DNA of 64,000 nucleotides from Torpedo marmorata (Eukaryota): the NCBI GenBank assembly GCA_977017645.1, contig OZ360240.1, positions 6,014,001-6,078,000 of the forward strand, read 5' to 3'. The notes beneath the pieces were generated by a model. That model was given only the letters and a program-made list of their open reading frames with translations. It searched no databases and had not been told where the DNA came from. Below, piece by piece: positions 13,956-60,900 of this stretch; the stretch's first letter is position 1; each line of letters opens with the position of its first letter. A program made the position numbers and the translations under genes.

Positions 13956-14008
13956 CTTCTCTTCCCTTTCCTTCTTAGGGAAGTTCGTTTTGATCCTCGT
14001 CGCCAATC

Positions 14009-14152
14009 TGTAGTGTATTCTAGGCTTAGATATACACAAGCACACGGAGACGTGGTGCTTCATTCATTCTTTATTACTAAACTAAAGATGGTTTCCCGCG
14101 CCACACAATATATGTGCATCATGACGTACCAAGCCTGCATGTATCCACAACA
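14009..14152 (-). repeat. 5' LTR of Gypsy-1
   Basis: 144 bp (12-bp deletion relative to the 3' LTR), adjacent to the PBS. Confidence 0.95.
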
Positions 14153-14404
14153 AAAAGCATCTATTCTCTAATCCATGCAGGATACATCAGCAAAATTGCA
14201 GTTAATATAATACTTGTTTAAGCTCAATGGCATCTAAATGGACATAATGGGGGTTATGAATTTAAAAATAAAACTCTTAGATATAACTACAGATTACCAA
14301 ACCATAAAAAAGCCCTAAATTTCAAAAGCAACCAAATGCCTGCTGAACAGTTTTGTAATCTACCAGAATAGCTATTGAAACACTGTATTCTTGAAATGCC
14401 ATTT

Positions 14405-37034: not shown

Positions 37035-38192
37035 CCGTATATTTCGGCGTATAAGTCGACCAGCAGATAAGTCGACCCCCTTTTTCAGCCTCATTTTAAT
37101 GGTTTTATGGTATATCTGGCGTATAAGTCGAACCCCAAAAATCGCGATGCCTGAGATGTTGCGCATTGACCGGCGTATAAGTCGACCCCCAATTTTCAGG
37201 CTGTCTGGGCCTCCTAGCAACAACCCAAAATTTGTTACAACATCCCATTCGCCAAGTAACAAAGCTGTAAATTAAGCAAGTACCACACCGGTAAGTTAAA
37301 AAAACAGTAAAAAAAAAACCTTTGCTTCTGGCCGGGTAGATGCAGGTGCGGCGACGTCTTTCTCCTGAGCAGTAGCGGGGACTCATTCTCCTGAGCAGGA
37401 ACGTCTTTCTCCTGAGCAGTAGCGTGGAGCTCGTTCTCCCGAGCAGTAGCGGGGACTCATTCTCCCGAGCAGGAGCGGGGACGTCTTTCTCCCAAGCAGG
37501 AGCGGGGACGTCGTTCTCCCGGGCAGGTGTGGGGACTCGTTCTCCTGAGCAGGAGCGGGGAGCTCGTTCTCCCGAGCAGGAGCGGGGAGCTCGTTCTCCC
37601 GAGCAGGAGCGGGGACATCGTTCTCCCGGGCAGGTGCGGGGACTCGTTCTCCCGGGCAGGAGCGGGGAACTCGTTCTCCCGAGCAGGAGCGGGGAGCTCG
37701 TTCTCCCGAGCAGGAGCGGGGACGTCGTTCTCCCAGGTAGGAGCGGGGAGCTCATTCTCCCGAGAAGGAGCGGGGAGCTCATTCTCCCGGGTAGGAGCAG
37801 GGAGCTCATTCTCCCGAGCAGGAGCGGGGACGTCGTTCTCCCGTTTAGGAGCGGGGAGCTCGTTCTCCCGAGCAGGAGCGGGGAGCTCGTTCTCCCGAGC
37901 AGGAGCGGGGACCTCGGGCTCTACAATTGTAGAATGTCTGGGTGGTTTATGGCGGCGCCCGGCGGTGGGGAGGTGTCGTAGAGAGGCGGCGCCGGCGGTG
38001 GGGAGGCGCTTCCAGGGTCGACCTATACGCCGAATCGTGTTTTCAGGGGTCGACTTATACGCTGAATCGGCGTGAACTCGATTTTGAGCTGATTTTAAGG
38101 TCTCAAAAGTATATCTGGCGTATAAGTCGACCCCCGTTTTTTGAGACATTTTTGAGGGTTTCAAGGGTCGACTTATACGCCGAAATATACGG
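37035..38192. mobile_element. Tc2/pogo-like non-autonomous DNA element
   Basis: TIR CCGTATATTTCGGCGTATAAGTCGACC at both ends; TA duplicated relative to the empty site caattatattta at ~43628. Confidence 0.93.
37345..37912. repeat. 27-bp GC-rich minisatellite, about 20 units
   Basis: Unit GAGCAGGAGCGGGGAGCTCGTTCTCCC. Confidence 0.93.
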
Positions 38193-38931
38193 TATATTTA
38201 ACACCTAAAAAATTTAAGAAATTTAATCCGACATTATCAGGTTTATGTAATAAAGAGGAAGGTTCTTTCATACATTCTACATGGTTTTGTCCAAAAGTTT
38301 ATGATTTTTGGTTGAAAGTTAAAAAAAATTTAGATAAAGTATTTAAGATTACATTTCCAATGGATCCTATGATATTTTTGTTTGGAGATATTAGAAAACT
38401 TAGTATTAAGATGAAATTGAACATGAATCAAATAGAATTTCTGTGAATTGCTTTAGCTGTTTCAAAGAAATGTATTGCTATTACTTGGAAATCTGATCTA
38501 GATTTAGGGTTAGAAAGATGGCATGCAGAACTTCGTTCATGTATACCACTTGAAAAAATTACTTATAATTTACACAACAAATATCATTTCTTTTAAAAAA
38601 TATGGAGCCCATATATGAAAGCTGTCGGTTTAAGGATTTGAAGATCTCTGGACATCGGATCTACTGGCAAACCTGACCTCCATAATAGAATTAGTTTATA
38701 GATGTATTTTTTTTAGATTGACACTCTCCTTACTCTATCTTTTTCTTTCTTTTTTTATTTTATTTTTATTTTATTTTTTATTTTTATTTTATTAGATTAG
38801 TGGGGTTGGGAGGGTTGGGGAGGGGAGGGTGGGAGGGGGGTGAAAATGTATCACAAGTATTTTGATAATTTCATATTTTACCTTATGTATTCTGTGATTT
38901 AAAATTTTAAATAAAATATTTTTAAAAAAAG

Positions 38932-39432
38932 AATTACACTTCCAATGGATCCTATGATATTCTTATTTGGAGATATTAAAAGAATTAGTACCAAGATGAA
39001 ATTAAATATGTACCAAATAGAATTTTTGCGAATTGCTTTAGCTGTTTCTAAGAAATGTATTGATATTACATGGAAATCTGATGTAGATTTAGGGTTAGAT
39101 AGGTGGCATGCAGAACTTCATTCAGCTATACCACTTGAAAAAATTACTTATAATTTACGCAATAAATACCATTTCTTTTTGAAAATATGGAGCCCATATA
39201 TAAAAACGGTTGGTTTAAGGATTTGAAGATCTCTGGATATCAGATCTGACTGGTGAACCTATTTTCTACAATTTAGATTATAGTTGTTCTTTTTTTTTTA
39301 GATTGACATTCTCCTTATTTTATCTTTTTCTTTCTTTCTTTTCTATTAACTAGATTAGTAGGGCTGGGAGGGTTAGGGAGGGGAGGGAGGGTGGGGGGGG
39401 GAGAAAATGTATCACATGTATTTTGATAATTT
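38932..39432 (+). mobile_element. Second L1-like 3' fragment, in tandem
   Basis: ORF 38945..39226 (LEKITY...KIWSPY); 3' end cut where Gypsy-2 begins. Confidence 0.88.
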
Positions 39433-41897
39433 TGTCCATCCACCTGTTGCTCAAGTACTCCCGCGACTGCTGTGTTGGAGGCGTCTGTAGTGAGGGCGGT
39501 CGGGGCATCTGTCCGTGGGTGCACCAGAAGCGTGGCGTTGGCCAGGGCGTCTTTGGCCCTCTGAAACGCTTCTGATGCTTCATTGTCCCGTTCCACCTCT
39601 TTCTTTTTGCCGGCCATCAAGGCGAATAGCGGGCGCATGATGCGGGCTGCTGCCGGTATGAAACGGTGGTAAAAGTTGATCATACCAGCGAACTCCTGGA
39701 GGCCCTTCACCGTGTGTGGCTTGGTGAAGCGCCTGACAGCCTCTACCTTCTCAGGTAGTGGTGTCGTCCCGTGTTCATTAATTCTGTGGCCCAGGAAATC
39801 GATAGTCTCTAGCCCGAACTGGCATTTGACTGGGTTGATGGTCAGGCCGAAATCTCTGAGGCGGGAGCACAGCTGCCATATGTGCGCTGCATGTTCTTTG
39901 CGATTGCGGCTGGCCACCAGTATGTCATCGAGGTAGATGAATACGAAATCGAGATCCCGGCCCACCATGTCCATTATCCTCTGGAAAGTTTGAGCAGCGT
40001 TCTTTAGCCCGAACAAACCAAAGGGGGTTATGATGGCGGTTTTAGCTATGTCCTCAGGGTTGACTGGGATCTGGTGGTAGCCTCTGATGAGGTAAACCTT
40101 GGAGAAGACCCGTGCCTCCTGTAAGTTTGCGGTGAAGTCCTGTATGTGGGGCACTGGGTATCGGTCTGGCATGGTTGCCTGGTTCAGGCGCCGGTAGTCT
40201 CCGCACGGTCTCCAACCTCCTGCCGCCTTCGGAACCATGTGTAGGGGGGGGTGCCCAGGGGCTGTCGGACCTGTGCATGATCCCCAGCTCCTCCATCTTC
40301 ATGAACTCTTCTTTGTCTAAGCTCAGTTTATCGGGGGAGGCGGCGTGCCCTAGCGTGGAGGGGAGGGCCCACTGTGAGGATGTGGTGCTGCACCCCGTGT
40401 TTGGGCCCGGCGGAGGTGAACTGCGGTACTGCGATGGATGGGAATTCGGCAAGGATTCGCGTGAACTCGTTGCGGTCGGCGGTGACGGAATGGAGGTGGG
40501 GGGCAGGTAAACCGGCTTTCCCCAGGGGGAAGGACTGGAAGGTTTTGGCGTGGACTAGCCTTCACCCATTGAGATCTACCATCAGGCCATGTGCCCTGAC
40601 GAAATCCGCCCCTAGGAGCAGTCGTTCTACTGCGGCGAGTGTAAAGGACCGTGTGAACAGGCTGTTGCCGAAACAGAACGGTACGGTACACGTGCCGAAC
40701 GTCCTTATGGTGGAGCAGTTTGTTGCTCTCAAAGATGGGCAAGGCTGCTTGTTGCGGATGTCGTGTGCCGAGGAGGGAAGAACGCTGACTTCGGCTCCGG
40801 TGTCGACCAAGAACCGCCATCCAGACAGGGAATCCCACACGTTGAGCAGGCTGTCTTGTTGTCCAACCGCCATGGCCATTAACAACGGCCGGCCTTGGCG
40901 TTTCCCGGGAAAGCGCAGGGTGGGCGGCATCGGCGGGCCTCCGCACCCCATCACTGATGGTAGAAACAGCACTGCTCACCCGCAGAGTCCGTTTGCCTGT
41001 CGCGTGTGGCCGGTGGCCTTGTCGCTCGTTGTATGTGGGGCTTGGCGACGTGCTCCACCATGATGTCGGAGTGTCTCTGACTTCCAGAGCACGTTTGCCC
41101 AGGCTGCCACCTTCCTCGGGTCGCTGAAATCTTCGTCCACCAGCAGCAATCGGATATCCTCCGCCAATAGCTCTAAGAAAATCTGCTCGAAGAGCAGGCA
41201 AGGTGTATGGCCGTCGGCGAGCGCTAACATCTCGCCCATGAGGACGGATGGGGCCCTGTCCTCCTATCCGTCCATGTGCAACAATCGGGTCGCGCGCTTA
41301 CGCTTCAAGAGCCCGAAGGTGCGGGTTAGTAGCTCTTTAATGGCCTCATACTTCCCTTGCTCTGGTGGGTGCCGGAGGAAATCGACGATTCTGGCCACTG
41401 TGTCTTGATCCAGCGAGCTCACCACGTAGTAGTAGCGCGTGGCGTCGGAGGAGATCTGTCGAATCTGGAACTGAGCCTCGGCTTGCTCGAACCAGACCTG
41501 TGGCTGTGTTGTCCAGAAGGTCGGAGGCTTCAGGGCGACCGCGTGGATGCTTGCCTGGTCCATCGTCTTCGGGTCCAAAAACGCCGTTCAGACCCGTCGG
41601 GGACACCAATGTAGCGCGCTGCGGATGCTGCGTCGAAGAAACACCACTACATACGAGGTAAGCTCAAATAAGACTGATTTATTGAGGCTCTGGCTCTGCT
41701 TTTATAGGGCCAGCTACCCGGAGAGACCCGCCTCTTCCGGCCGAGATGATGTCACGGGCCGGCTGCCGATTGGTCGGTTTTCCCGCCGGTGCTGGAGCTG
41801 ATGCAAGAAGGCCATTTAGTCCGTGGCCTTGATGCAATCGCCGAGTTCAACCGCCATTTTGTGCAGCGGGTTGCCGATCGGCTCGCGGGCCGCTACA
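39433..41897 (-). mobile_element. Gypsy LTR retrotransposon 2 (5' LTR, gag, PR, RT; 3' part lost), inserted in the BEL RT
   Basis: LTR 41610..41897 (TGTAGCG...CGCTACA); PBS TGGTGTCCCCGACG (tRNA-Trp type, one mismatch); gag LKPPTFW..WFEQAEAQF; FLVDTGAE; [11 protein letters not shown]; YLDD. Confidence 0.93.
41610..41897 (-). repeat. 5' LTR of Gypsy-2
   Basis: 7-bp terminal IR; TATAAAA (~41700..41706) and AATAAA (~41678..41683) on the minus strand. Confidence 0.88.
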
Positions 41898-43026
41898 GAA
41901 CTGTCATTCTGTATTCTACCATGTTCTGACTGTAATCTCCATCAGGCCACCAAAGGAATCGTAACAAGTCACGGTCTTCTTTCGGTACTTTCAGCTGGTG
42001 GAACATTGCTTCAATGTCTGCAGTGATGACAAGAGGTTCTTTACTGAATCTAGTTAAGACTCCGATCAACGTACTGGTCAAGTCTGTAAGAACTGAGAGT
42101 TTAATGAAACTCCCCGAAAGGTTGCTACACAGTCAAACACCACTCGAAGTTTTTTCTTTTGTGGATGCAAAACCCCATGGTGTGGTAAATACCATTTTTT
42201 GCCATCACTACGTTCCAAGATATCATCTGGTACTTTCTCTGCATAACCTTTAAATATCATGTCAGACACGCAGTTGGTGTAGTCTGAATGAAAGGAAGAA
42301 TCTTTCTTGAATCTTCTCTTTAAATTCAGTGTACGTTGTTCGACAACGCTCCTATTATCAGGCATGCAAAATTCCCTTTTCTTTAAAGGTAATCCAATGT
42401 AATAATGATCATTAACTATCTTGGCAGATTTTGACACCAAATCCAAGAACTGCTGGTCTTCCTTTGAAGGTTCTTGGGCGTCCCTGAGGCACTCAAGAAA
42501 GTCAGTCTTGAACTGCTGCTCCCACAGCTCTTCAAGTTTAACAATCAATATCTTGTTGACACTTATAGCCGACTGGTCCTGATCCTCATTTCTTCCTCCT
42601 AATGGTCCATTAATCGTCCAACCAAGCATAGTTTTGACAGCGTAAGGTCCATCTCCCACACTCCTTATCATATCTAGTGGTTCCAGAGCTTTTGGTACAT
42701 CTGTACAAATCAGCAACTCTAGCTCAGAGTTGATTTTAGGTAAACGAACATTTTTCAAATGCATCCACGGTTCAATGTCGTTTTGATGTGGGATGTTTCC
42801 TTTATGCACAGGCATAGTTTTCTGAGTTTATACGCCTGGGAGTTCACAAAAATCGTTACTATCCAGCTTAGCGACCTCTAAGCCAAAAACAACGCTGGTT
42901 TCAATGATTTTAACTTGACCTATAGTTCTCAATAGAATTTTTGACTTTCTTCCTTGAAGATTAAGCTTATTCATTAGCCCCACAGTGCAAAATGACGCAG
43001 TGCTACCTGGGTCAAGAAATGCATAA

Positions 43027-44391
43027 CTGAAGAAGTTATTTATAAATGGGATTCTAAATTAATATCAACAAGAAAGAAAAATTCTCCTATTTTTAAACAT
43101 TTGTTAGAAATATGGAATAAGACGGATAAGGAAATAGGGGGAAGAACAATGATTTCTCCAAGGATGCCTTTATATCAAAATGGACTTATTCCATTTACTA
43201 TTAATAATCAATTATTTAAAATTTGGTTTCAAAAAGGAATTAAGAAAATTAATGACTGTCTTGAAGCTGGGAAATTCATTACTTTTCAAAGAATGAAGGA
43301 TAAATTTAATATATTAGATAATACACTTTTTGCTTATTATCAAATTAGAGCATTTCTGATTGAGAAATTAGGTTATAGTTTGATTTTACCAAGACAGAAT
43401 GAATTAGAATTATTAGATACTAAAGAAGATGTAAATAAATTTATTTCTCAAATGTATAAATTGTTTCAGAGGAAAACTTCTAAAGTAGGAATTCATAAAT
43501 CAAAATTAAAATGGGAATTAGATTTGAATGTAACAATAGATGAGAATCACTGGAAAGAATTATGTAAATTAAGTATGACGAAGATTATTAATGTTAGATA
43601 TAGATTAGTACAATATAATTTTTTTCATCAATTATATTTAACACCTAAAAAACTAAAGAAATTTAATCCGACATTATCAGGTTTATGTTTTAGATGTAAT
43701 AAAGAAGAGGTTCTTTTGTACATTCTACATGGTTTTGTCCAAAAGTTTATGATTTTTGGTTGAAAGTTAAAAAATTTTTAGATAAAGTATTTAAGATTAC
43801 ATTTCCAATGGATCCTATGATATTTTTGTTCGGAGATATTAGAAAATTTAGTATTAAGATGAAATTAAATATGTATCAAATAGAATTTTTGCAAATTGCT
43901 TTAGCTGTTTCAAAGAAATGCATTTCTATTACTTGGAAATCTGATTTAGATCTAGGATTAGAAAGATGGCATGCAGAACTTCGTTCGTGTATACCACTTG
44001 AAAAAATTACTTATAATTTACGTAATAAATACAATTTTTTCTTAAAAATTTGGAGCCCATATATGAAAGTTGTTGGTTTAAGAATTTGAAGACCTCTGGG
44101 TATCGGATCTTCTAGCATACCTGACCTCCACAATAGAATTAGTTTATAGATGTATGTTTTTTTAGATTGGCATCCTCCTTACTCTATCTTTTTCTTTCTT
44201 TTTTTTCTTTCTCTATTTTTATTTTATATATTTTTTTATATATTTTTTTATTTTTATTAGATTAGTGGGGTTGGGAGGGTTGGGGAGGGGAGGGTGGGTG
44301 AAAATGTATCACAAATATTTTGATAATTTCATATTTTATTTTATGTATTTTGTGATTTAAAATTTTAAATAAAATATATTAAAAAAAAAAA
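43027..44391 (+). mobile_element. L1-like LINE, 5'-truncated, inserted in the BEL protease
   Basis: 13-bp TSD AAGAAATGCATAA (43014..43026, 44392..44404); poly(A); CFRC knuckle region. Confidence 0.95.
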
Positions 44392-45865
44392 AAGAAATGC
44401 ATAAGTATGCACTATTGCACTCCCTTTCTTGGCCTTGACTTGCACAGGTACTATTAAAAGTTTGCAGATGTCCTCACTGGCCCCAGTAAGACCATTTGTC
44501 TGTACCGAGGCTACAGCACTGTTTTCATCTGCTTCTTTTCTTGCTGTTTGTTCCTTTTCCGTATTCTTCTATTTCTGGAAGAGCATTTTGGGATGCTTTA
44601 GACTGCATATGTCGCAGCTGAGTCGCTTTTTGCAGTTCTTGCTGATGTGTCCTTTACACATACAGCCAAAACATACTCCATTTTCCTTCAGAAAAGCAAT
44701 TTTCTCACTATGCGTTTTCTTTTCCAACTGTGCACAGATTTCCAAAGCATGTATATCTTTGCAGAACAAACATTTCTTCACAGCAAGCAAACTCTCCTTT
44801 TCCTTAGTTTCTTTATCAATTTTCTTATCTGCAACAATAACAGTGGTGGCAAATATACTTTTTTTCAATTTTGGATGAGGATGTGATTTGGACCTCTCAA
44901 CATCTTTGCTTACTGTCTGAGTGTCTTTGATATTTCCATACACTGGATTTGTGACAATGTCCACTTGCCCTTCAATGAACTCCACCAAATCCTTAAAAGT
45001 AGCCCTTTGATTGTATTTTTTCTGGTATTCAACAACTAAACCTCCATAGTTCTCTCATCCGGTAAGGTAATTTATTTAAAATGATTTGCATATTAGTAGA
45101 CATATCAAGCTCTTGTAGATAGTCGATCTCAGCCATGGCATTGCAACATCCTCTTAGAAAGAGGGCGTAAGCTTGTAGAACTTTCATGTCATCCGGTTTT
45201 ATTGACGACCATGAAAGAGCCTTCTGTATATAAGCTGGAGCAATTTTATGCTTGTTGCCAAAATGCTTCTTTAGTAAAGACTTAGCCCTTTTCAATCCTT
45301 CGTTCGGGGGCATATGATGGCAACTCCTTACGTTCTTGTGGTTGTCCGCTCGTGAACTGTTCCAAATAATAGACAATCCTCTGAGTTTTGGCTATTACTT
45401 TCAATACTGTGTTCAAAGTTTCTCATGAACGCTTGGAACTGAAGTGGATCACCATTAAAAACTTGAATCTCTCTCTTGGGCAGAGAAGAGAGAGACTGTA
45501 ACTGGATTAACGATGCAGCCATTTCATCTTGCCTTCTCATGCCTGAGCGTACATTGCTTTGTTCACCCTGATTTCTGATACCTGACTGGATCATCAAGTA
45601 ATCTGTACCGAGAGATTGGATTTGGCTCATATTTCTGTCTGCTGTGGTCATTGTTGGGGTTTGAGGATTGGCATTACCATGCCTTAACATGGTTTGTTCT
45701 GGTACATGCACGTCTTGTAACCATGGCACTGGCTCTGCCTTAGTATTAAATATTTTCTTTTTCTGTTGTTCTTCCTCAAAACATGACTCCATAACATTAG
45801 ACGCTTTAGATAAATTACTTCGAACATCAGATCCCTTTGAGGTTGTTAGTAACTTCATTTTAGCC

Positions 45866-46579
45866 TTAACAACAGTAAGGTTTTTCTTCCAACTCTATTT
45901 CCTCTCTTTTCCTCCTTAGCTGCTCCTCTTCCCTCCCTAGCTGCTCCTCCTGCAGCTCCTTTTCCATCCGTAGCTGCTCCCTTCTCTGCTCCTCTTCCCT
46001 CCGTAGCTGCTCCTCTTGTCTCCGTAGCTGCTCCCTTTTTCTCCTTAGCTGCTCCTCCTGCTCTTCCAAGGCAAATTTATTCTGAAGCAATTCTTGTTCT
46101 GCAACAAGAGCGACAACATCAGCCTGAACCTTTAAACGTGCAGATGCAGTACTTGAAGTACAGGAAACTCTGGAGCTTGCTCGAGAAGAACTTTCTTTGC
46201 TTCTCCTGCTTCCAGCATTTGACGCACTATCACTTGGTTGTATATCATCCTGAATGTCAGATGTTGCCTTAATATCTGGCTTTGTCTCCATTTTGATTTG
46301 CCAATCCTCCACCTCACCATCTTGTGACATACCTTCAGACATTTCCATGTGACTGATCTTAGATTCTGTTGATGTTTTTTGCAGAAATTCTGTGGAGTTT
46401 GTATTCCCAGCAGCCAAAACCTTCTCTGTTTCTTTTGCCTCTTTCAGTCTTGTAAAGAGAACAGCTTTGGCTCCACTTGTATCTAAGTGCCGCCATTGCA
46501 ATTCATCTCTAAGTTCCGTGACCTTCATCTCCTTGATACGTTGCTCCTCAGGGGCAACAGCTTCAGCGGCGGCTGCCAT
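45866..46579 (-). pseudogene. BEL Gag N-terminus: SAP domain, Ser-rich region and coiled coil
   Basis: IKEMKVTELRDELQWRHLDTSGAKAVLFTRLKEA fits the SAP pattern; PSDSAS..SS and an E/R/Q coil are typical of BEL gag. Confidence 0.8.
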
Positions 46580-46876
46580 TTTATCCTTATCTTTATCCTT
46601 ATCCATCCAGCTGATCGCCATTATCAGGCACCAAGCTTGCACAACAATAACTCCAAAACCAAAAACAGTCCCCAAAGGACAAGCGGCAGTTACTCCAAAC
46701 TGTGTTCCAAACTCGCAATCAAAACACAGAAGGAATCCACGTAAGGCTTACCGCTTCCGATGGCCTTGATGCTCCTGTTGACAATCGTGCATCCATGAGT
46801 TCAAAATGCTCTAAACAGAGCCCAATCGATCCAATCCAAATTCCAAATCCAATTTCCAACTTTCTATTGACTTAAT

Positions 46877-47376
46877 TGTAGCGACTACTTTCCATTATAG
46901 TCGCTTGGATGCTAAAATAATCTTGTAATCTATGACTCGTTCCAACAAATTTGTACTAAAGTTAAGTTGAGTTTTCCAAAGTTTATTAAACGATATTAAA
47001 CATTGTTAACGTTATTATAGGTTGCTAAACATTGTTACAAGTTGCTAAACATTGTTACAAGTTGCTAAACATTGTTACAAGTTGCTAAACTTTGTTACAA
47101 GTAGCTAAACATTGTTACAAGTTGCTAAACTTTGTTACAAGTAGCTAAACATTGTTACAAGTTGCTAAACAGTCAATAGAAAATGTTGCAAGAAGCTTTA
47201 ACATTCATTTCGTAGAACAAAAGAAAGAAACTAAAAATCTTATCTCCTAAGCAAGCAGAGAAAACTAGTTATGACCCTGAAGCAAAGGTGTTGCGAGGAG
47301 ACAGCATAAAAATAAGTTAAACAAAAAAAATAACCACAGACAAGTGGCAAGCATGAAACACATTTTAACCCCTACA
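46877..47376 (-). repeat. 5' LTR of the BEL element
   Basis: TGTAG...CTACA terminal IR; AATAAA on minus at 46982..46987. The partner LTR is lost, so the boundaries are inferred. Confidence 0.75.
47021..47170. repeat. 20-bp tandem repeat (GTTGCTAAACATTGTTACAA, ~7.5 copies) inside the BEL LTR
   Basis: Seen directly. Confidence 0.95.
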
Positions 47377-57921: not shown

Positions 57922-60900
57922 TTTAAAAAAAAAAATTATTTTATTTAAACTTTTAAATCACAAAATACATAAAATAAAACATAAAATTGACAAAATACAT
58001 GTGATACATTTTCACCCCCCCACCTCCCTCCCCTCCCTAACCCCCCCATCCCCACTAATCTAGTAATATAGAATAAAAGTAAAAATAAAAATAGAAAAAA
58101 GAAAGGAAAAGATAGAATAAGGAGAATATCATCTATAAACTAATTCTATTACGGAGGTCAAGTATGCCAGTAGATCCGATATCTAGAGATCTTCAAATCC
58201 CTAAACCCACAGCTCTCATATATGGGCTCCAAATTTTCAAAAAGAAATGATATTTATTACATAAATTATAAGTAATTTTTTCCAGTGGTATACACGAACG
58301 AAGCTCTGCATGCCATCTTTCTAATCCTAAATCTAAATCAGATTTCCAAGTAATAGCAATGCATTTTTTTCGAAACCGCTAAAGCAATTCGTAAAAATTC
58401 TACTTGAAACATATTTAATTTCTTTTTAATACTAAATTTTCTAATATCTCCAAATAAAAATAACATAGGATCCATTGGAAATGTAATATTAAATATTTTA
58501 TCTAAAAATTTTTTAACTTTCAACCAAAAATCTTGAATCTTTGGACAAAACCATGTAGAATGAACAAAAGAACCTTCCTCATTATTGCATCTAAAACATA
58601 ATCCTGATAATGTCGGATTAAATTTCTTTAATTTTTTAGGTGTTAAATATAATTGATGAAAGAAATTATATTGTACTAATCTATATCTAACATTAATAAT
58701 TTTCGTCATACTTAACTTACATAAATCTTTCCAATGATTTTCATCTATATTTACATTTAAATCTAATTCCCATTTTAATCTTGATTTATGCAATCCTATT
58801 TTAGGCATTTTCCTCTGAAACAATTTATACATTTGAGAAATAAATTTATTAACTTCTCCATTAGTAACTAATAATTCTAATTCATTCTGTCTTGGTAAAA
58901 TCAAAGCATGACCTAATTTCTCAGTTAAAAAAGCTTTAACTTGATAATAAGCTAGAAATGTATTATCTGATATATTAAATTTATCTTTCATTCTTGGAAA
59001 CGTAATAAATTTTCCAGCTTCAAAACAATCATTAATCTTCTTAATACCTTTTTGAAACCAAATTTTAAATAACTGATTATTAACAGTAAATGATATAAGT
59101 CCATTTTGATATAGTGGCATATTTGAAGAAATTAATCCTCTTCCACCTATCTCTTTATCCATCTTACCCCATATTTCTAACAAATGTTTAATAATCAGTG
59201 AATTTTTCTTTTTTACTGATATTAATTTAGAATCCCATTTATAAATAATCTCTTATTTAAAATTTTCTCCTATATTATTTAATTCTATTTTAATCCAAGC
59301 AGAAGTTTTATTTGAATCAAAAAATTCATTAACAAATTTTAATTGGGCTGCTTTATAATAATTTTGAAAATTAGGAAGTTGCAATCCACCCAACTCATAA
59401 TTCCAGGTTAACTTTTCCATGCTTACTCTTGCTAACTTTCCTTTCCATAAAAATTTCCTAATAATAAAATTTAAATCTTTAAAAATTTTTTGAGGAATTC
59501 CAAAAGGAATTGATTGAAAAAGATACTGAACTCTTGGAAAAATATTCATTTTAATACAATTTACCCTTCCCATTAAAGTTATGGGTAAATCTTTCCAATT
59601 CTCTAAATCTTTCTTTATTTTCACAAATAATGGTAGATAGTTTAATTTATATAAATTTTCCAATTTTGTATCAACCTTAACCCCCAAATATTTAATTCCT
59701 TCTTTAGCCCATTTAAATTGTGTAATTTCTTTACATCTAGTATAATCACCTTGAGATAAAGCCATTATTTCACTCTTATATGAATTAATTTTATATCCAG
59801 ATATTTCACCATATTCTCTTAATATAATAGATAATTGTTGAAGTGATATTATAGATTTTGTCATATATATCAATACATCATCTGCAAACAAACTAATCTT
59901 ATGTTCTTCCGTACCAACTTTAATACCCACTATTTTAGGATCTTTTCTAACTAATTCAGCCAAGGGTTCTATCGCCAAAACAAATAAAGCTGGTGACAGG
60001 GGACATCCCTGTCTCGTAGAACGTGTCAAAGAAAATTTTGGCGATATTTGTCCATTTGTAATTACTTTAGCTGATGGTTCTTTATATATAGTTTTAATCC
60101 AATTTATGAATGTATTTCCAAAACCAAATTTTTCTAATACCTTAAATAAAAAATTCCATTCTAATCTATCAAAAGCCTTTTTAGCGTCTAATGTTACAAC
60201 TAATGGTAAATCTTGTTTCTTTTTATGCAAACTAATTAAACTAATTAATCTAGCTATATTATCCTTTGAATATCTATTTTTAATAAAACCAGCTTGATCT
60301 AGATGTACCAAATCTGGCAAATATTTAGCCATTCTATTTGCTAAAATTTTTGCCATTATTTTATAATCTACATTTAATAATGAAATAGGTCTATATGATT
60401 CGGTTTTTAATACATCTCTATCCTTTTTTGGTATAACTGTAATTATAGCATTTTAAAATGTTTTCGGTAATGAATGAGTTTCCGTAATTTGATCTAATAT
60501 TTCCATATATGGAGGTATCAATAAGTCTTTAAATTCTTTATAAAATTCTGATGAAAACCCATCATCACCCGGAGATTTACCACTCTTCAACGAAGAAAAA
60601 ACTTCACTAACTTCTCTCATTGTAAAAGGTAAATCTAAAGAATCTCTACTCCGGATATTCAATTTAGGTAATGTGATTTTAGATAAGAATCTATTAATTT
60701 TAGAATCATCTTGATCAATCTGCGATCTATATAAATTCTGATAATAGTCTTTAAAAGATTAATTTATCTCTTGAGGTTTATAAGTTATTTCTCCAGTATT
60801 TTTCTTCCTTATAGCATTTATAGTTTTAGAAACTTGTTCCTTTTTCAATTGCCATGCCAAAACCTTATGTGCTCTTTCTCCTAATTCATAATATCTTTGT

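Follow-up and report, generated by a model that had tools for sequence, protein, structure and literature searches.

In the window analysed here, a 64-kb stretch of Torpedo marmorata DNA, the 5' portion of an LTR retrotransposon lies on the minus strand between 47376 and 41900; its 500-bp LTR is followed by a leader and a damaged gag-pol region. The 5' LTR (46877..47376, minus strand) has TGT..ACA termini and contains a 20-nt tandem array of 7.6 copies (47021..47171, minus strand, detected with TRF) as well as a candidate polyadenylation signal, AATAAA, recognized from the sequence at 46982..46987 on the same strand. The gag-pol region (41900..46747, minus strand) comprises gag, protease and the start of the reverse transcriptase (RT), is disrupted by stops and frameshifts, and encodes a SAP domain at the start of Gag (~46436-46537, minus strand; Pfam E = 1.3e-8). 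The element is interrupted in its protease region by a LINE piece (~43027-44391) and is cut off inside the RT by a Gypsy insertion at 41897. Neither its 3' half nor a second, 3' LTR was found in the 64-kb window, and because the window has no second LTR, the LTR ends were tested on other genomic copies, where solo LTRs, 3' LTRs and 5-bp target duplications define them.

A DNA search of the animal's own genome, in which the best 40 of 2873 candidates were scored, yielded at least 30 loci of this family, here designated family A. A 28-nt pattern from the U5 end gave 100 exact matches in the genome, 30 of which were inspected. In 11 of them the LTR is followed by the site seen in the window copy and in 19 by unrelated DNA, the latter comprising 13 that lie behind a polypurine tract, 3 solo LTRs and 3 for which no LTR start was found. 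LTR length in the other family A copies ranges from 304 to 572 bp, and their target duplications are mostly 5 bp. The 20-nt array is expanded in the window copy and, with a different unit, in copy L007, and is short or absent in most copies; in the window copy it lies directly 3' of the predicted primer described below and lengthens the loop between that segment and its site. Both LTRs were present in six of seven retrieved family A copies, with 91.5-96.5% identity, and none of the seven has a long intact frame; family A is thus fairly old, and the copies examined are dead.

The protease-RT stretch of the window element matches 148 proteins, and most of the 120 matches listed carry Pao peptidase, DUF1759 or DUF5641 domains, with hosts that include teleosts, echinoderms, a soft coral and a schistosome. 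PF05380, PF03564 and PF18701 are present in relatives of the element, and among the top 30 PF05380 loci of the genome 23 cluster with family A copies and 26 link to family A copies at 80% DNA identity or above, in a single group that also contains the sister family B. Together with an LTR length within 0.2-1.2 kb, a polypurine tract, the target duplication and homologous Pol and Gag domains, these observations identify the window element as a dead, truncated BEL/Pao copy. LTR size, the gag-protease-RT order, Pao peptidase, DUF1759, DUF5641, a polypurine tract preceding the 3' LTR and a 5-bp duplication are shared with the Belpaoviridae as profiled by the ICTV, in which priming is ascribed to host tRNA through an 18-nt site for tRNA-Arg or tRNA-Gly (PMC8742986). 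The window lineage differs in having no such site; as the family is defined by phylogeny, the lineage is a variant of the Belpaoviridae and is not excluded from them.

Immediately inside the LTR, a spacer (46872..46876, minus strand; 5 nt in 26/30 family A copies and 6 nt in 4/30) separates the LTR end from the primer-binding position at 46859..46871 on the minus strand. All coordinates that the original prediction had given were reproduced on the minus strand, as was its observation that the primer-binding position is devoid of a TGG. The first TGG occurs 18 nt past the LTR end (46858). The site AGTCAATAGAAA (46872..46861, minus strand) is complementary to a segment inside the LTR at 47182..47171, upstream of the AATAAA. 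Dinucleotide shuffles of the LTR reached at least 12 nt in 10/5000 cases and at least 11 nt in 20/5000. The predicted 12-nt complement is exact in the window, but its 12th pair (A46872:T47171) occurs in only 4/30 copies, most of which have a C; this pair is copy-specific, and the family core is 11 Watson-Crick pairs (site side 46871..46861, beginning GT). This core is perfect in 22 of the 30 family A copies, six of these loci being near-duplicates, and with one G.U and one A-U added it becomes an uninterrupted helix of 13 pairs between 47184..47172 and 46871..46859. The predicted self-primer corresponds to 47172..47184 on the minus strand, with a predicted 3' end after 47172 and an AC terminus. 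A further proposed extension, CAAC/GTTG after a bulge, can form but is one of two options, since the TTGGA past the core (46855..46859, minus strand) can pair either with the LTR upstream of the primer or with a candidate partner, TCCAA, in U5 (46905..46909, minus strand), a pairing available in 28/30 copies. As family-wide features, both the 12th pair and the bulged extension were rejected. Matched changes of site and LTR also occur within a family A sub-branch (L023, L033, L062).

The site was compared with 47 distinct host tRNA sequences, covering 12 anticodons and 8 amino acids and lacking the cognates of either Gypsy site of the window. Within this partial set no tRNA match was found for the window site, the best being 6 nt, or 9 nt with G.U pairs. 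The sites of the 14 families described below likewise reached only 5-7 nt in this set, and none of the 14 has a TGG in its first 10 nt. The exact 11-mer, located 30 nt or less before a T-loop motif, was found at three places in the genome, none of them a tRNA gene. Both Gypsy elements of the window (41610-41897, nested in the BEL RT, and ~13990-14260) do have TGG-starting sites, as had been noted, one at 41608 and the other 3 nt past the LTR end at 14009. As controls these elements show only 4-5 nt of self-complementarity. We take their sites to resemble the 3' ends of tRNA-Trp and tRNA-Ser. A tRNA-derived SINE is abundant genome-wide and accounts for most of the loose A/B-box matches among those listed (100 of 218).

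Sister families A2, B, C, D and E were obtained from Pfam profile searches of the animal's own genome and of retrieved regions. Among 20 own-genome regions, 5 were without a paired repeat and others contained nested elements, and both LTR ends could be obtained for only some of 17 further regions; the LTR ends of families B, C and E were placed by inspection, to within 2-3 nt. A metagenome scan added 80 loci, among which a paired repeat defined the 5' end of the LTR boundary for 8 non-redundant elements, least clearly for L232. Each sister family has its own site sequence and a matching LTR segment. Relative to family A, and on both arms, B differs at two positions, D at another position and C by a matched indel, with C copies differing among themselves by one further matched change. 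In all 14 families with paired-LTR ends, which span close sisters to elements with 36-51% protein identity to the query, the site has a perfect complement of 10-15 nt in its own LTR, a length reached in each case by 10/1000 shuffles or fewer (p<=0.01). The site starts 0-5 nt from the LTR end in these families, and the own LTR is the best partner in 13/14 families, with one tie. Complements of at least 10 nt occurred in 4/182 cross-family pairs, and 3/504 downstream control windows reached the observed length. The expectation that complementarity would be kept in the family and its relatives through compensatory change was thereby borne out in 14/14 families, with differing letters on both arms.

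A blind scan was run on the 39 of the 80 metagenome loci with enough upstream DNA. Matches of at least 11 nt were found in 15/39 loci, three near-duplicate pairs being among the 15, versus 2/117 shuffles, and the matched LTR segment ends in AC in 14 of these 15. The other 24 loci remained below 11 nt; some of them are without a whole 5' LTR or have a misplaced gag start. A junction scan with a strict acceptor rule and early ATG limits found matches in 11/19 loci and missed several others. Matches of 10-15 nt were seen by eye in L179, L185, L212, L224, L250 and L254, and L185, L212, L253 and L254 were also recovered by the blind scan. No relatives of the element were found by a scan of viral contigs.

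The relationship between site and LTR was also followed copy by copy in two families. Family B is young, with paired LTRs 94-100% identical, and has 9776 pattern matches in the genome. Among the 100 matches listed, position 10 of the site, left free in the pattern, is G in every case, while position 11 is G, A, T or C in 48, 39, 12 and 1 (a hand count in which some rows are relic sites in family F); 6 small indels also occur among these 100 matches. When a tree of 30 copies was computed with the site left out, position 11 required 7 changes, a number that none of the 482 control columns attains. All 23 true B copies of the tree keep the LTR partner unchanged; the other 7 belong to family F. 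A hypervariable base just past the core is what would be expected if the site were re-copied from a short self-primer. The LTRs of families B and C (L162-L168, L174, L176, L177; L160, L170) end in TA, not CA.

Family F is a chimera. Its LTR is new and is matched by a site of its own; ~150 nt further in lie a B-type U5 end and site, relics that have no partner. From 736 pattern matches, 30 were retrieved and 26 anchored, one of them a 3' LTR, which leaves 25 5' junctions. Three site variants coexist in these copies, one of them on two branches; 23/25 copies match their own LTR over 11 nt and 2/25 have a mismatch. In a permutation test that ignores kinship, and in a sample where five copies are tandem, the mean was 10 and 23 was never reached in 10,000 permutations. 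Copy L406 has a site variant from a different sub-branch than its LTR. Six F copies have runs of 12, 13 and 15 nt, with diverse letters after position 11, and the varying run length together with the diverse flank suggests primers of slightly different length. Some F copies (among L365-L369, L374, L387 and L391-L420) are tandem arrays sharing LTRs, with a period of 4964, and copy L387 carries a tandem pair of F-type sites, of which the first matches its LTR and the second is another variant. The U3 regions of families B and F are GC-rich and contain GCGCATGCGC-like repeats, which are NRF1-like.

The U5 hairpin at 46880..46905 (minus strand) was present as predicted; it consists of 9 bp with one G.U (z = -3.7), not of 8 bp, and a strong hairpin (z <= -1.6) occurs in 4/14 families. 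In Tf1 of Schizosaccharomyces pombe, a central duplex and two more duplexes between site-adjacent bases and the LTR are needed, in what has been described as a three-duplex 'pretzel' (PMC10085805, in part). The U5 hairpin would correspond to one of these. Flanking duplexes can likewise be drawn in families A, B and D, where the bases just 5' of the hairpin arm pair with site positions 13 onward over 5 bp in A and 4 bp in B and D, in one register and with three different sequences, a pattern found after the fact. This third duplex is present in three of eight families and absent in A2, E, F, L178 and C; all three Tf1-like duplexes are possible in A, B and D, and the pretzel is incomplete in most families. 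In folding models of the window copy, RNA starts at 47184-47200 give the core pairing a P>=0.94, and RNAs that extend further 5' give 0.4-0.5. Across 30 copies, core P exceeds 0.5 in 19 with a start at the paired A, in 26 with a start 8 nt upstream and in 4 with a start at the LTR start; in the model, the last of these starts mostly abolishes the helix. Taken in full, the region is no more stably folded than its shuffled versions (z = -0.85).

A modelled transcription start near 47184 fits both the folding results and the fossil flank; a TATA-like motif ~65 nt upstream of the paired segment in family F, noted by eye, does not fit it. The LTRs of B, D and F (L164, L176, L290, L365) also contain, by eye, a donor-like GGGTGAG ~20 nt upstream of the paired segment. 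The TATA-like and donor-like motifs would place the start upstream of the primer, unlike in Tf1, and the primer may be internal in these families, not the first nucleotides of the RNA. Contigs of three runs contained no transcription starts or splice joints for family B or the window.

A second form of the complementarity was found among the metagenome elements. In five of the eight (L192, L226, L235, L237, L251), an 11-15 nt match exists only across a GT..AG junction, whose donor is of the GTAAG or GTACG type and whose acceptor is rich in pyrimidines; the shuffle null for these matches was allowed the same GT..AG junction freedom. If transcription began at the first paired base, these relatives would need a first exon of 4-8 nt. 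In an RT-RNase H tree (LG+G4) the midpoint root, a weak one, falls on a Schistosoma protein; L289-291 and L302 were omitted owing to low cover. The window family belongs to a clade of contiguous-type elements (bootstrap 84) surrounded by spliced-type branches, and a spliced clade (100) contains two further contiguous elements, a topology that fits repeated intron loss. A search of the animal's own genome with a spliced-type RT gave top matches of 58-59% identity, several of them at known family B loci.

Schistosomes have introns as short as ~35 nt. The Sinbad element of Schistosoma mansoni (Sinbad clade, Sailor lineage) has an LTR of 386 bp (PMC554778, in part). Inspection by eye of the sequence in supplement 1 of that paper indicates a 4-nt spacer followed by bases 391-401, which begin with GT and contain no TGG, and which are complementary to LTR positions 191-198 plus 234-236, flanking a 35-nt GT..AG stretch (PMC554778, in part). 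The Sinbad match hence needs splicing, in contrast to the contiguous match of the window element. The main text of the Sinbad paper makes no mention of a PBS, tRNA or priming (PMC554778), and a term search of PMC3118150 found no occurrence of primer, PBS, tRNA or priming. A Schistosoma protein, P0119, is a homologue of the window element (37%) and served as a by-eye proxy for the Sinbad clade, on a long branch. We lean slightly towards a broader reading in which a Sinbad-related branch of the Belpaoviridae, with hosts ranging from flukes and marine invertebrates to fish-type animals, would be tRNA-free, the ancestral primer having been built when host splicing removed an intron from within the LTR. 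In the window branch, intron loss would have made the spliced form permanent. The site would be rewritten from the LTR at every round, so that thousands of genomic copies would preserve a record of where primer 5' ends lay.

The reading that we favour for the window, and consider quite probable, is that it contains a dead copy of a BEL/Pao family with a primer site complementary to its own LTR, and that the family started reverse transcription from that LTR segment and not from a tRNA. The proposal that this BEL lineage self-primes is supported by the covariation and by the fossil signatures, and it is likely that Tf1-like self-priming occurs in a superfamily for which no report of it was found. 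The transcript would begin at or slightly upstream of the paired segment (near 47184), which would fold onto the site ~300 nt downstream, or ~185 nt in copies without the expanded array, assisted in family A by the U5 hairpin and the short third duplex. Cleavage behind the conserved AC, probably by the element's RNase H as in Tf1, would free a 3'-OH, and RT would extend from it through the 5-nt spacer, U5 and R. In LTR elements generally, the plus-strand copy of the primer becomes the site of the daughter element. During plus-strand synthesis RT would thus copy the retained primer, so that the daughter site would take its sequence from the LTR segment; untemplated bases added at the primer end would scramble the next position. 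In distant relatives the primer segment would be put together when an intron within the LTR is spliced out; it is contiguous in the window branch.

Several other explanations were weighed against self-priming within one RNA. A primer derived from the element could act in trans, as a short RNA cut from LTR transcripts of the same or another copy (an aborted transcript, a small RNA or a second packaged genome) and annealed to the site. This would account no less well for the complementarity, for the tracking at copy level and for the hypervariable flank, and L406, whose site and LTR come from different sub-branches, speaks for it. It is nevertheless unlikely, as site and own LTR agree in 23/25 F copies despite three coexisting variants, and the hairpin and third duplex in A, B and D point to a fold in cis. 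The pairing could instead be structural or regulatory, serving packaging, dimer formation, masking of the site or a switch between mRNA and genome, with a host RNA such as a tRNA fragment as the real primer. The tRNA-Arg or tRNA-Gly priming given for the family (PMC8742986), the partial coverage of the tRNA screen and the possible upstream start in family F leave some room for this reading. Yet the site tracks the LTR among families and among near-identical copies, and each variant would need its own host RNA. Because the site varies copy by copy with its own LTR, a fixed host primer is hard to invoke, which is a stronger argument than the tRNA screen; with the uniform lack of an early TGG in the 14 sites and the three T-loop places that are not tRNA genes, a host primer appears very unlikely.

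Lastly, AT-rich sequence might have produced the match by chance, or a single inverted duplication might have been passed on without having any function. Both arms are indeed AT-rich, and the window alone gives p ~0.002-0.004. Such an origin is hardly credible given that the pairing is kept near the LTR end with different letters in 14/14 families, and across splice junctions in five; it is contradicted by the 14-family test, the blind scan and the tracking in family F.

Self-priming from the element's own LTR has its closest parallel in the Tf1/sushi group (Tf1/Tf2 of Schizosaccharomyces pombe, Tj1, Tosmo1-3), in which the site just past the 5' LTR is complementary to ~11 nt of the own LTR and has no tRNA match. 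These are Ty3/gypsy chromoviruses, and the window element, with BEL/Pao domains and homologues, is not a member. Tf1 has been reported to keep the primer-copied site on about half of its cDNA and to add untemplated bases (PMC11042837, in part), and a hypervariable base occurs at the same place in the window lineage. Differences from Tf1 include a site 0-6 nt from the LTR end (5 nt in the window) and the need for splicing in five relatives. The Tf1 primer is the 5' end of the RNA, released by an RNase H cut; in the window lineage the cut, after the conserved AC, is a predicted one, and the primer may be internal. Self-priming of this kind has been tested so far in a yeast element. For plant Tcn1 (Gypsy) and TAR (Copia), it was predicted from LTR-site complementarity alone (PMC6317226, in part); this is the same kind of evidence and a precedent for repeated origin, in other superfamilies and hosts, and the part of that source consulted mentions no splice-junction form. 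The statement that self-priming had not been reported for BEL/Pao held for the titles and abstract openings searched, a coverage that leaves subscription journals, Repbase Reports and GyDB outside. If true, self-priming in this lineage would mean that the reference description of one of the five Ortervirales families needs correcting and that tRNA-free priming has arisen in a third superfamily as well; it would also account for the failure of annotation based on tRNA matches to recognize these sites. The splice-junction form, if true, would couple the start of reverse transcription to host splicing, a link without precedent in the literature searched. With ~9,800 family B matches, starts, cleavage and strong-stop ends would be readable from tissue RNA and DNA.

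Other repeats occur in the window. The LINE 3' fragment at 43027-44391, in the BEL protease region, has an apparent 13-bp target duplication, and related pieces lie at 38193-39433 and 57932-59254. A 27-nt GC-rich tandem array is found at 37342-37916, in a unit bounded by repeated GTCGACTTATACGCC-like motifs, which is itself inserted in a LINE fragment.
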